Positions 14,730 through 45,938 are shown, counted from the stretch's first letter. The stretch is DNA of 64,000 nucleotides from Chlamydiota bacterium (GCA_011064725.1 JAAKFQ010000002.1:2662-66661), one strand, 5' to 3'. A program made the numbers and translations. The notes: generated by a model not told the origin, from the sequence alone.

Positions 14730-14940
14730 ATACCAATGGTAACAATTAAATGTATAAATTGGATTCAAGATTTTCAACCTGAATAAAGTTTGGAAATCGC
14801 AGCTAACCACTAGGGGGCTGCTTAACCAGCCCCTTCAGATGGTTAGCAAGATTGAAAACGAGATCGTGCTGACGCTTAGGCGTCAGTCCTAATTGAAAAG
14901 ATGAAGATGAATTTGTACAGTTAATTTTTACTATTGGTAT
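14730..14940 (+). repeat. family B nested-palindrome repeat, copy B1
   Basis: Ends ATACCAATGG ... CTATTGGTAT. Internal hairpin modules are GCTAACCAC..GGGGCTGCTTAACCAGCCCC..ATGGTTAGC and CTGACGCTTAGGCGTCAG. Flanked by TAA/TAA. Ends 8 nt before ATG 14949. Confidence 0.75.
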
Positions 14941-14948
14941 AAACTATC

Positions 14949-15362
14949 ATGATGGAAATTCAGGCAACCTATCTACATGACATGCGCATCGAATGTATCC
15001 GCCTGGATACAAAGGAGCGTATTTATACAGATGGGCCTCAAAGTATTCAAGGGCTCGATGAATATTTTTCACCAACAGATCTGTGTGTGCTCAGTTTAGC
15101 AACCTGTGTGCTAACAATGATGGGATTGAAAGCCAAAAAGCTTGGAGCCGATTTCAAAAAGACGCTTGTGAAAATGCAAAAAGAGATGACAAAAGATTTT
15201 AAGCGCATCGGCTTTATTGAACTGGAAATTTTTTGTCCTAATGAATTTTCAGAAGAAGAACAAAAAGCTCTGGAAGATGCAGCCTATACGTGCCCTGTGC
15301 ACCATAGCTTGCATCCAGAAATTCGTATCAATATAGAATTTTATTGGGGCGTACATGGCTGA
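14949..15362 (+). CDS. OsmC/Ohr family peroxiredoxin-like protein
   Basis: 137 aa with the two OsmC-type Cys contexts (SPTDLCVLSLATCV and YTCPVHH). Overlaps the next gene by 8 nt. Confidence 0.7.
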   Translation: MMEIQATYLHDMRIECIRLDTKERIYTDGPQSIQGLDEYFSPTDLCVLSLATCVLTMMGLKAKKLGADFKKTLVKMQKEMTKDFKRIGFIELEIFCPNEFSEEEQKALEDAAYTCPVHHSLHPEIRINIEFYWGVHG

Positions 15363-16065
15363 TATTATTATTCAAGCAAGAGTGGGCTCAGAGCGTTTGA
15401 AAAATAAGCTTTTATTAAAAATCAAAGATCAGACGCTGTTAGACATTTTAATCAACCGATTAAAAAGGTGTAAAAAAGTAGAGCGTCTTATTCTTGCCAT
15501 CCCTGATACAAAAGAAAATGATGTCTTAGAAAAGGCATGTAAAAAGCATGGCATCGATTGCTTTAGAGAAGATGAAAAGAATGTCTTAAAACGGTTTTAT
15601 TTGGCTGCCCAGCATTTTAGTAGTGAAATTATTGTACGCATCACATCAGACTGTCCTTTGATGGATCCAGAACTTGTCGATGTGATGATCGAAACTTTTG
15701 AAAAAAGCACGTGCGATTATGTCACAACAAATCAAAAACGCTGTTTGCCAAGAGGATTTGATGTAGAGGTTTTTTCATTTAAAGCACTTGAAAAAGCATT
15801 TTTTATGACACAAGACCCTGTGCATTTAGAACACGTCACGCTTTTTTTTAAAACATCTGAGGAATTTTCAACAAGAGTGGTTCAACATCCTTTTGTCAAT
15901 GCACATTTCAGGTTGACGCTTGATACAAAAGAAGATTTTGCGCTCTTAAAAATCCTTTTAGAAGAGTTAGATCCTGCATTTTCTATGCTTGATGTGTTTG
16001 ATTTTTTAGAAAAAAATCCCCATATTGCTATACTTAATAAACACATCAAACAAAAGCTGGTATAG
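15355..16065 (+). CDS. cytidylyltransferase (CTP_transf_3; SpsF / acylneuraminate cytidylyltransferase-like)
   Basis: N-terminal IIIQARVGSERLKNK (AR-x-GS-x-RL-x-K motif), ITSDCPLMDP and RGFDVEVF. Confidence 0.8.
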   Translation: MADIIIQARVGSERLKNKLLLKIKDQTLLDILINRLKRCKKVERLILAIPDTKENDVLEKACKKHGIDCFREDEKNVLKRFYLAAQHFSSEIIVRITSDCPLMDPELVDVMIETFEKSTCDYVTTNQKRCLPRGFDVEVFSFKALEKAFFMTQDPVHLEHVTLFFKTSEEFSTRVVQHPFVNAHFRLTLDTKEDFALLKILLEELDPAFSMLDVFDFLEKNPHIAILNKHIKQKLV

Positions 16066-17570
16066 TGATCGATTTTGAGTGCGTCTTTTCAACGAGAGAA
16101 CATGCAAAAATTCTCTACAATTGGAAGCAACATCCTTCTATAAGACTTGTTTCGAAAGATTCTTCTAAAAAGACATTTGATGCGTTTTTTGCAGAAGATT
16201 TTTTGCTCAAATTTGTCACAAGTCTTTATAATTTTTCTTATTTTGTTGCATTAAAGGGAAAAAAAATAGGGTGTGTGCGCATGCATCCTGTGGATTCGAA
16301 GATTCTAGAAGTCTCTTTGTTTTTAGACCCTGAATTTCAAAATAAAGGATGGGGGATAAAAGCTTTAAAAAAGGCCATTGAGTTTGCAAAAGGTCTTGGT
16401 TTTCGGACTTTAAGAGTAGAAATCAAGCAAGAAAACACAAGATCTAAAAAATTCTTTCAAAAATTGGGATTTAAATACCAAAAGACTTTTCAGGGTTTAG
16501 AGATGTTTCATTTGGATCTATTTGGGCAATTTAAACGCACCTACATCATTGCAGAGGCGGGCAGTAATTGGATGGTGGAGGGAAAAGATCATAAAGAAAT
16601 AGCAAAACAGATGATTTTTGCTGCAAAAGACGCTGGATGTGATGCGATCAAGTTTCAAACTTTTAGAAAAGACAAGCTTTATGCCAAAGGAGTATCCAAT
16701 GCCAAGTATTTGAAAAAACGAGGCATTAATGAAACGATGGAAACGCTGTTTGAAAAATTTGAAATGCCTTTAGGGATGGTTGAATGGCTCTATTTAGAAA
16801 CGCAAAAAGTGGGACTTGATTTTTTATCTTCTGTATTTTCTAGACCAGATTTTATTGCTGTCGATCCTTTTGTCAAGATGCATAAAATTGCCTCTTATGA
16901 ACTGTGTCACCTCGAGCTTTTAGAATGTGTAGCACAAACAAAAAAAACGTGTCTTTTATCCACAGGGGCGGCATCGATGCAAGATATTTTGTGGGCTAAA
17001 TCTAGGCTCAGCGATAATGAAGTGATTTTGATGCAGTGCACAGCTCACTACCCAACGCCAATAGAAGATTTAAACTTAAATACCCTGCTTCAAATGAAAA
17101 GTACATTTAAAACACCCGTGGGTCTTTCTGATCATTCAATGGATCTTTTAGCTCCTTCAATTGCAGTGAGCCTTGGAGCTAGTGTGATAGAAAAACATTT
17201 TACCCTGTCTAGGCAATATGCAGGGCCAGATCATTTTTTTGCTCTAGAACCCGATGAACTTAAGACCATGTGTTTAAATATTCGAAAAGCAGAAAAAATG
17301 GGTAAAAATTTCTCAAAAAAAGTCGAAAATGTAGAAAAAGAGCTCTTTTACTTTGCAAAAAGGCGCTTGCATACAACAAGATATGTCAAGAAGGGAGAAG
17401 CATTTGTCTACAAAAAAAACTTTGATATATTAAGATCTGGTGACAAAAAAGCAGGACTTGAGCCAAAATACCTACAACTTGTAAATGGTAAAATAGCCCA
17501 GTGTGATCTCGATGAGGGAGAAGGCATTGAGCAAAAGGATGTGAATGCAGCTGCAAGCACTTTTTTTTGA
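16065..17570 (+). CDS. GNAT N-acetyltransferase fused to a NeuB-family nonulosonic acid synthase with SAF domain
   Basis: The N-terminal ~160 aa form a GNAT fold (FQNKGWGIKALKKAIEFAK). Next come NeuB motifs YIIAEAGSNW...DAGCDAIKFQTF and VGLSDHS, then a C-terminal SAF-like domain. The GTG start overlaps the upstream stop (TAGTG). Confidence 0.8.
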   Translation: MIDFECVFSTREHAKILYNWKQHPSIRLVSKDSSKKTFDAFFAEDFLLKFVTSLYNFSYFVALKGKKIGCVRMHPVDSKILEVSLFLDPEFQNKGWGIKALKKAIEFAKGLGFRTLRVEIKQENTRSKKFFQKLGFKYQKTFQGLEMFHLDLFGQFKRTYIIAEAGSNWMVEGKDHKEIAKQMIFAAKDAGCDAIKFQTFRKDKLYAKGVSNAKYLKKRGINETMETLFEKFEMPLGMVEWLYLETQKVGLDFLSSVFSRPDFIAVDPFVKMHKIASYELCHLELLECVAQTKKTCLLSTGAASMQDILWAKSRLSDNEVILMQCTAHYPTPIEDLNLNTLLQMKSTFKTPVGLSDHSMDLLAPSIAVSLGASVIEKHFTLSRQYAGPDHFFALEPDELKTMCLNIRKAEKMGKNFSKKVENVEKELFYFAKRRLHTTRYVKKGEAFVYKKNFDILRSGDKKAGLEPKYLQLVNGKIAQCDLDEGEGIEQKDVNAAASTFF

Positions 17571-45612: not shown

Positions 45613-45640
45613 GCATCAAGCGAATAGATGTTCTAGAATA

Positions 45641-45668
45641 AAAGCCGGCCTTTAGGTCGGCTTTTTTA
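45641..45668 (+). terminator. Rho-independent terminator
   Basis: AAAGCCGGCC-TTTA-GGTCGGCTTT stem-loop followed by a T-run, 29 nt after the stop codon of the 43309 gene. Confidence 0.8.
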
Positions 45669-45704
45669 TTGCTAGAAAGAATTGAAATACATATACTAAG
45701 CTTA

Positions 45705-45938
45705 TACCAGTAGTAAAAATTAAATGTGTAAATTGGATTCAAGATTTCCAATCGGAATGAAGTCAAGGGGGCTGTGCAAGCAGCCCCATATGAAATCGTA
45801 GCTAACCACTAGGGGACTGCTTAAACAGCCCCTTCAGATGGTTAGCAAGATTGAAAACGAAATTTTACTGACGCCTGAGCGTCAGTTCTGATTGGAAAGA
45901 TGGAGATGAATTTGTACGGTTAATTTTTGCTATTGGTA
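45705..45938 (+). repeat. family B nested-palindrome repeat, copy B4 (long form)
   Basis: Ends TACCAGTAGT ... GCTATTGGTA, flanked by TTA/TTA. Contains all B1 modules plus an extra GGGGGCTGTGCAAGCAGCCCC hairpin. Ends 5 nt before tRNA-Pro. Confidence 0.75.

Follow-up and report, generated by a model that had tools for sequence, protein, structure and literature searches.

Among the closest described counterparts of the repeats reported here are the Correia elements (CREE/NEMIS) of Neisseria. These elements are non-autonomous, measure roughly 100-160 bp and carry long inverted-repeat arms around a conserved core; they usually lie near genes, their hairpin is co-transcribed with those genes, promoter-like sequence is present at one or both ends, and they duplicate TA and carry a site for IHF. 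For CREE, ribonuclease III (RNase III) binding and cleavage are documented and promoters at either end are possible, according to PMC2649163. Family B, a set of four repeats (B1-B4) in a 64,000-nucleotide stretch of a Chlamydiota scaffold (JAAKFQ010000002.1:2662-66661, hereafter the window), resembles the Correia elements in rough size, in being non-autonomous, in its long arms around a core, its nearness to genes, its presumably co-transcribed hairpin and its promoter-like end sequences, but it resides in another host phylum and is wholly palindromic with nested GC-rich hairpins. Its ends read TACCAAT, its duplication is of 3 bp (TAA/TTA), and no sequence similarity to the Correia elements is apparent.

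The ERIC/IRU repeats of enterobacteria and the RUP, BOX and SPRITE repeats of Streptococcus pneumoniae are, like family B, imperfect palindromes or modular repeats in transcribed intergenic DNA. Their size varies by internal insertions and deletions, and they affect mRNA structure; to our knowledge, none has been reported to lie systematically within 15 nt of start codons. Their sequences are unrelated to family B, and BOX is built of tandem modules rather than nested hairpins. The pneumococcal repeats are described in PMC3049150. Family B also has counterparts among the palindromic mobile repeats of obligate intracellular bacteria, namely the RPE of Rickettsia and the QMITEs of Coxiella. RPEs can insert in coding sequence and alter protein ends, whereas the effect of B1 is confined to the final residues of a small protein, and none of the family B copies was seen as an in-frame insertion within a gene; phylum and sequence also differ. 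Both RPE and QMITEs are covered in a review (PMC10969869). The REP/BIME palindromes are 20-40 nt long, carry a GTAG or CGTC tag, leave no target duplication and are linked to RAYT (PMC3733652). Unlike them, family B elements are 157-234 nt long, have a 3-bp duplication and contain an 18-nt CTGACGC hairpin that is confined to the family B copies. Miniature inverted-repeat transposable elements, or MITEs, of the IS5/PIF-Harbinger (Tourist-like) type generate a 3-bp T-A/T-A target duplication, as family B does, but the TACCAAT... ends of family B are unlike typical IS5 ends and no matching transposase or insertion sequence (IS) was found in the stretch of source contig covered or in the relatives; this link is a lead only. 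We know of no small non-coding mobile element described so far in chlamydiae. The chlamydial phylum is absent from the text of a 2024 review of prokaryotic MITEs, and a full-text literature search for MITE and chlamydiae together returned no relevant paper.

The window belongs to a 128-kb scaffold of the metagenome-assembled genome (MAG) K940chlam8, and its proteins include NGX30736.1 and NGX30737.1; K940_chlam_8 is an uncultured family-level lineage enriched in marine sediment (PMC8242063). Our preferred explanation, to which we assign a probability of about 0.7, is that family B is a non-autonomous MITE-like element of this marine-sediment chlamydia, tolerated as a read-through leader hairpin ahead of genes. 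The family is real and recently mobile; its sequence is new and the kind of element is already known. It fits a prokaryotic MITE in size, in its dispersed copies (four in 64 kb), in its lack of coding capacity, with stop codons throughout all six frames, in its inverted ends and target duplication, and in having both filled and empty sites.

An nhmmer profile built from the four copies recovered these four alone in the window, all on the + strand (E = 1e-42 to 6e-60), and a covariance model run over 226 kb (the window, a further 17.7 kb of the same contig, and relatives) again placed only B1-B4 in the window. The profile and the boundaries, refined to TACC...GGTA, agree with the places named by an earlier reading of the window from its letters alone (the sequence-only reading), with B1 trimmed to 14731-14939. 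The comparison DNA, comprising the added 17.7 kb of the source scaffold and about 100 kb from relatives reached via neighbouring proteins, yielded no further copies by nhmmer or covariance model beyond an orthologue of B3 in a close relative (contig L139) and one divergent element in a 60%-identity relative (contig L140). The common polarity claimed earlier for the copies with a CTGACG module extends to B3: the reverse strands score far below the + strands in nhmmer, so that the polarity of the family is well defined in every copy. Likewise, each right end indeed lies close upstream of a + strand gene or tRNA. Counted from the last element base, the distance is 9 nt at B1, 15, 8 and 5 nt at B2-B4, and 6 nt in L139. 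The functions encoded downstream of B1-B4 are unrelated (OsmC, an HlyD-family efflux adaptor, an IscS-like cysteine desulfurase and tRNA-Pro).

Comparison of filled and empty sites shows that the family B copies are insertions, with a 3-bp T-A/T-A duplication. The HlyD-family protein of L142, a contig from the same sample as L139, is 92% identical to that of the window, and the spacer is nearly identical up to the insertion point of B2: L142 reads ...TTTTATCTAAAAAGAAGGGGGAGTGTCATG without the element, where the window reads ...TTTTATCTGGAAGGTAA[B2]TATGGGGGGAGTGTCATG. The same site is empty in L143 (HlyD 65% identical), L145 (62%) and L150 (50%), and the spacers at the empty sites measure 34-45 nt. 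B2, missing from a relative whose neighbouring proteins are ~90% identical, is shown by this comparison to be young, in relative terms. At the third site, the L139 orthologue of B3 (148-304) occupies the same position, whereas L140, a 60%-identity relative, has only 27 nt from the PP2C stop to the ATG of the IscS-like gene; there, TTGAGC-17-TACAAT is followed by 7 nt and then the ATG. Excising B3 under a 3-bp model puts the ATG at exactly the same distance, 7 nt, from the -10-like box.

B1 provides a case at a coding junction. The gene before each copy had been described as co-directional, which stands; the gene before B1 is a real 60-codon open reading frame (ORF) that runs into the element. 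Orthologues of this small ORF are found in L145 (3284-3451) and L149 (7641-7805), with the common motif SFWPTHRPRLRSAEGWDRK. Deleting 14731-14942 (B1 plus one TAA) makes the ORF end in ...VRRIKLS*, its TGA overlapping the ATG of OsmC, and this reconstruction fits the two orthologues in length class and ATGA coupling. A 2-bp TA duplication, of the IS630/mariner type, was rejected: the B1 reconstruction then gives an implausible 68-aa ORF. Because the restored ORF at B1 and the spacer lengths at the empty B2 and B3 sites all fit, we take the target duplication to be 3 bp, which settles the 2-3 bp proposed earlier for the same flanks. The two repeats of the duplication are identical at B1 (TAA) and at B4 (TTA); at B2 and B3, two of their three bases agree.

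The small ORF encodes a basic product of 54-60 aa with no Pfam match and just two matching sequences in a collection of 5.8 billion proteins, and it is ATGA-coupled to the next gene in three lineages. In the 60-65% relatives, the OsmC-family gene (14949-15362) is missing and the CTP_transf_3 gene is coupled straight to the small ORF; either the lineage of the window gained OsmC or those relatives lost it. Logan short-read contigs of the same organism end inside B1 (L001 starts at window position 14895) and inside B4 (L141 ends at 45855). The break in B4 coincides with a 35-nt stretch exactly common to B1, and the break in B1 matches no repeat in the window, which hints at more copies elsewhere in the genome. 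A fifth copy at 37213-37405, suggested by 11-bp inverted ends, was discarded: its left end lies within the genuine CorC_HlyC coding region, and the 9-mer recurs in other coding DNA. A solitary AATATTGGTATAAAATG at 37395-37411, just before the PP2C gene, is identical to a family B right end with its junction, and the inverted ATACCAATATT at 37213 lies in real coding sequence; the pair is probably due to chance, although it might be what is left of an element end. Also discarded was a composite transposon formed by B1 and B2 around a 5.5-kb gene cluster, for the relatives have the same genes in the same order and neither element.

Every copy is palindromic over its whole length and folds end to end, with RNA minimum free energies of -62 to -106 kcal/mol (z = -10.7 to -12.6 against shuffles). 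The terminal inverted repeats TACCAAT...ATTGGTA continue into arms of ~48 nt, and helix 1, of 28 pairs, is 96% paired. The modular design recognised by the sequence-only reading is borne out, except that the central AACCA...TGGTT hairpin is not optional: it is common to all copies. Only the GGGG..CCCC hairpin is optional, being nested in the loop of the central hairpin in B1 and B4, with a second one in the left half of B4. The patterns GGGGnYTG..CAGCCCC and CTGACGC..GCGTCAG (an 18-nt hairpin) each occur three times in the window, always inside family B copies, where ~0 are expected. B3 represents the bare 157-nt core. Rfam covariance models at gathering score found only tRNA and signal recognition particle (SRP) RNA in the window, the best match of B4 being a chance microRNA (E = 0.82), and a comparison with plasmid DNA gave no match to family B.

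The folding and covariation check proposed with the earlier reading was carried out on an alignment of five full copies, a small sample of related sequences for which slid controls keep the relatedness. Across 62 predicted pairs, 95.5% of cells are paired, and 16 of the 62 pairs have changed on both sides, compared with 7.9 +/- 1.8 in column shuffles (0/500 reach the observed value) and at most one in slid controls. B3 and its L139 orthologue differ at only 6 of 157 positions, all by transitions; on the + strand, four of these replace a Watson-Crick pair by G-U, the other two switch an A-C mismatch on or off, and the loops are unchanged. In the adjacent IscS-like gene, 79 of 373 third codon positions differ (Fisher p = 1e-7 against B3), as do 6 of 43 in the PP2C end (p = 0.02), so that B3 has diverged ~5 times more slowly than neighbouring synonymous sites. 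These patterns suggest that the hairpin is kept by selection. In each of the four copies, folding favours the + strand RNA over the - strand RNA, by 4-25 kcal/mol. An excess of G-U over A-C cells (18 versus 8) is suggestive, not significant (p = 0.08). GC skew is positive over the whole window, so gene orientation and replication orientation are inseparable at n = 4.

How these elements sit relative to neighbouring signals suggests why they end so near to genes. Unless marked as found by eye, the promoter sites named here are consensus matches of a scanner (sigma-70 type, -35/-10 spacing of 16-18 nt). Such sites precede B3 and B4 (Table 1) and are probably the native promoters of the IscS-like gene and of tRNA-Pro, respectively. 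At B4, a canonical terminator at 45640-45665 stands just before the promoter-like site; terminator and promoter take up the rest of the 94-nt spacer, and B4 lies at the sole position in it where an insertion leaves both intact. B1 sits at a translationally coupled gene junction. Each copy takes up the first bases presumed to be transcribed ahead of the following gene. If placement were uniform within the three reconstructed spacers (71, 23 and 94 nt), all three insertions would fall this near a start with p ~0.002, a rough and post hoc estimate. The simplest reading is targeting to, or survival in, short 5' leaders; every copy would then end 5-15 nt before a gene because insertions are tolerated or targeted only there.

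We picture family B as moved by a transposase acting in trans. Copies would land in, or persist nowhere but in, the handful of transcribed bases that separate a native promoter or an operon junction from the start that follows. In a compact genome this may be nearly the only spot where no terminator, promoter or coding sequence is broken. Transcription from the native promoter would pass through the copies in the orientation that yields the more stable RNA hairpin, and selection would keep this hairpin tight and self-contained, such that the downstream start codon or tRNA 5' end stays usable. As a possible route, RNase III or RNase P may remove the hairpin, and an outward promoter carried by the arms is a possible extra. 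If RNase III does cut the hairpin off, a near-leaderless mRNA would be restored after transcription.

Table 1. Family B copies, their modules and the associated ORF and promoter-like sites in the window.
Feature	Position	Strand	Details
B1	14731-14939 (209 nt)	+	Flanks TAA (14728-14730) / TAA (14940-14942); 9 nt before OsmC ATG 14949; within the last codons of the small ORF 14567-14749
B2	20476-20658 (183 nt)	+	Flanks TAA/TAT; directly 5' of GGGGGGAG, which is the Shine-Dalgarno sequence of the HlyD-family gene (ATG 20674, 15 nt off)
B3	38203-38359 (157 nt)	+	Minimal core; flanks TAA/TAC; 8 nt before IscS-like gene ATG 38368
B4	45705-45938 (234 nt)	+	Flanks TTA/TTA; 5 nt before tRNA-Pro(UGG); two GGGG..CCCC hairpins and one CTGACGC hairpin
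G module, GC-rich mini-hairpin	14813-14833 (B1 apical loop); 45812-45832 and extra 45767-45787 (B4)	+	Pattern count
C module, CTGACGC-loop-GCGTCAG mini-hairpin	14869-14886 (B1 right half); 20588-20605 (B2); 45868-45885 (B4)	+	None in B3
Small ORF NGX30736.1	14567-14749	+	60 codons; B1 left arm supplies the last six codons and the stop
Flank promoter-like site TTGAAA-18-TAAAAT with upstream TG	38171-38200	+	Ends 2 nt before B3
Flank promoter-like site TTGCTA-17-TATACT	45669-45697	+	Ends 7 nt before B4
Outward promoter-like site TTGAAA-17-TATAAT (11/12), B3 right arm	38314-38342	+	Mirror in left arm, 38248-38220 (-)
Weaker outward promoter-like sites (9/12) in B1	14893-14921; 14777-14749	+; -	Scanner

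Several points weigh against this explanation. The evidence base is four copies, one orthologue and one divergent relative, and two of the four duplications are imperfect (TAA/TAT and TAA/TAC). The 81.7 kb of source contig covered and the relatives contained no autonomous element or IS whose ends match, and no transposase domain was present among the window and relative genes whose Pfam matches were listed or scanned. Pattern scans for further copies were equally negative: the right-arm pattern gave 17 single matches in representative genome contigs, from unrelated phyla, none of which fits the nhmmer profile, and the right-end pattern gave at least 120 chance matches in metagenome contigs, with no genuine copy among the matches listed. 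All promoters are consensus-only, and the number of promoter-like matches in the window (22) is close to the 21.3 expected from shuffles; the site to the left of B2, TTGAAA-17-TATCTG at 8 nt, was found by eye and falls below the scanner criteria. Other intergenic DNA of the same two genomes likewise changes far less than third codon positions do (~2 differences in ~60 nt in the spacer before the B2 site), which shows that the conservation of B3 is typical of functional non-coding DNA here and not exceptional. Finally, transcription through the copies, RNase processing and the direction of selection are inferred.

Among the alternatives, a portable promoter of the Correia kind survives best, although we regard it as tentative only. 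The arms would carry outward TTGAAA-17-TAnnnT promoters that rewire the gene to the right and drive antisense transcription to the left. Both B3 arms indeed match 11 of 12 consensus positions and are unaltered in the L139 copy despite 21% third-position divergence nearby; B1 scores 9/12 in both arms, and TTGAAA and ATTTGT are unchanged in every copy. However, the hexamers are poor in B2 (TGAATT) and in B4 (TTGGAA...TACGGT), and the scanner passed no site in the arms of either copy, even though tRNA-Pro, the gene behind B4, has to be expressed. The two arms of a palindrome are also not independent of each other, and AT-rich DNA gives many such matches. This model is compatible with the MITE-like leader hairpin, to which an arm promoter would simply be added.

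More doubtful is a stronger version, in which family B targets the first transcribed nucleotides behind a promoter and may have been adopted by the host as a portable 5'-leader/promoter cassette. At B2, B3 and B4, a -10-like box precedes the left end by 2-8 nt, and adoption is suggested by the compensatory changes in the hairpin, the slow divergence of B3 and the divergent element of L140, which kept its core with the ends swapped. That element (L140 222-382), found by both the covariance model and nhmmer, has in common with family B the core sequences TTCAAGATTTT, AGTTTGGAA, AAACCA..TGGTT, TGAAAACAAGG and AAAGATGAAGA, while its ends of ~25 nt are unlike those of family B (GAGTTGGGGTGTTTGAGAAATTG...). 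The T-run of the SRP RNA gene immediately precedes it, and no gene starts at the end equivalent to the right end of family B. To keep the core while the ends are exchanged is not usual for a MITE, and for a purely selfish one the opposite would be expected. As a separate observation, the SRP RNA gene is, by eye, on the + strand in L140 (within 100-400; oriented as the window + strand), whereas Rfam puts it on the - strand in the window (29581-29677), which suggests a local inversion around this gene between the two genomes.

The sequence-only reading had proposed that a hybrid -10 box, formed where the element end meets its flank, starts leaderless mRNAs, and that the hairpin terminates or insulates upstream transcription. 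We consider this unlikely. The junction at B1 reads TGGTATAAA, similar to an extended -10 box, with the ATG 5 nt away, the OsmC and IscS-like genes have no Shine-Dalgarno sequence, and all copies lie behind a co-directional gene. However, the junction hexamers (TATAAA, TATATG, TATACC and TATTAT in B1-B4) lack the final T in three of four cases, and the hexamer is so near the gene at B3 (4 nt), in L139 (2 nt) and at B4 (1 nt from the tRNA 5' end) that transcription starting 6-8 nt downstream would begin within the gene itself; promoter-like sites are found instead to the left of B3 and B4. The leaderless-type layout noted for the two genes stands, but not as a result of insertion, since the lack of a Shine-Dalgarno sequence is ancestral. 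The IscS-like gene has none in the window or at the empty L140 site, and it looks natively leaderless because, in addition, a -10-like box precedes its ATG by 7 nt at that empty site; OsmC, in the reconstruction without B1, is coupled to the small ORF by an ATGA stop/start overlap. The terminator role does not hold either: a scan for hairpin plus T-run called none inside B1-B4, no copy has a T-run, and B4 already lies behind a terminator.

Mobilisation through single-stranded DNA, as in REP/RAYT or IS200/IS605-type systems, would make the common strand a matter of replication direction rather than of genes. This is very improbable: although the four copies lie on the positive-GC-skew strand, form strong hairpins whose G-T pairs favour one strand, and carry GACG/CGTC motifs in the C module, such systems leave no target duplication, while the 3 bp of family B are backed by three site reconstructions. 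Moreover, the inverted repeats of family B are long and terminal, unlike subterminal hairpins next to a fixed tetranucleotide, its 157-234 nt are far above REP size, and no Y1 transposase gene is present among the annotated neighbours. Least tenable is a native, non-mobile family of cis-regulatory RNA hairpins ahead of chosen genes, to which the strong covariation, the slow B3, the better folding of one strand and the core in common with an L140 element having other ends might point, but which is largely refuted by the empty sites, that is, by presence and absence varying between close relatives, by the duplicated flanks and by the disruption of a conserved ORF by B1, as well as by four functionally unrelated downstream genes and the lack of an Rfam match.

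The MITE-like explanation has several consequences. Mini-transposons that were active recently are still present in the genome of this bacterium, although it is compact and its owner presumably intracellular. They offer a clear natural example of where insertions can survive, namely in the short gap that separates a gene from the promoter or operon junction before it. Should selection act on the hairpin, as the covariation and slow divergence suggest, it would constitute a testable transposon-derived 5' leader on leaderless-type genes. On the practical side, short-read assemblies of these MAGs are broken up by family B.

The window also contains another family of palindromic repeats, unrelated to family B and probably the one that the sequence-only reading called family A, with 78-nt arms at 14336-14413 and 14419-14496 and related copies at 57336-57582 (overlapping the locus 57384-57586) and at 41825-41904. 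The copy at 14336-14496 sits in the spacer between FabI and the small ORF, and it also looks like an insertion because the corresponding 149-nt spacer of L145 is without it. Further along, two tandem paralogous genes without Pfam match (52008-53630 and 53752-55311) have duplicated upstream regions (51922-51999 and 53668-53745) that are 79% identical. A perfect 22-bp inverted repeat at 55604-55694 (AAAAAGCTCCTGCATCATGCAA / TTGCATGATGCAGGAGCTTTTT, with 47 nt between the arms) adjoins a tyrosine-recombinase (Phage_integrase) gene. In L140, the second CNNM/CorC gene (7955-9177) is called as two pieces, 79 aa and 201 aa long and separated by a gap, while its counterpart in the window is a single gene of 407 aa; the split copy may be a pseudogene or an assembly error.

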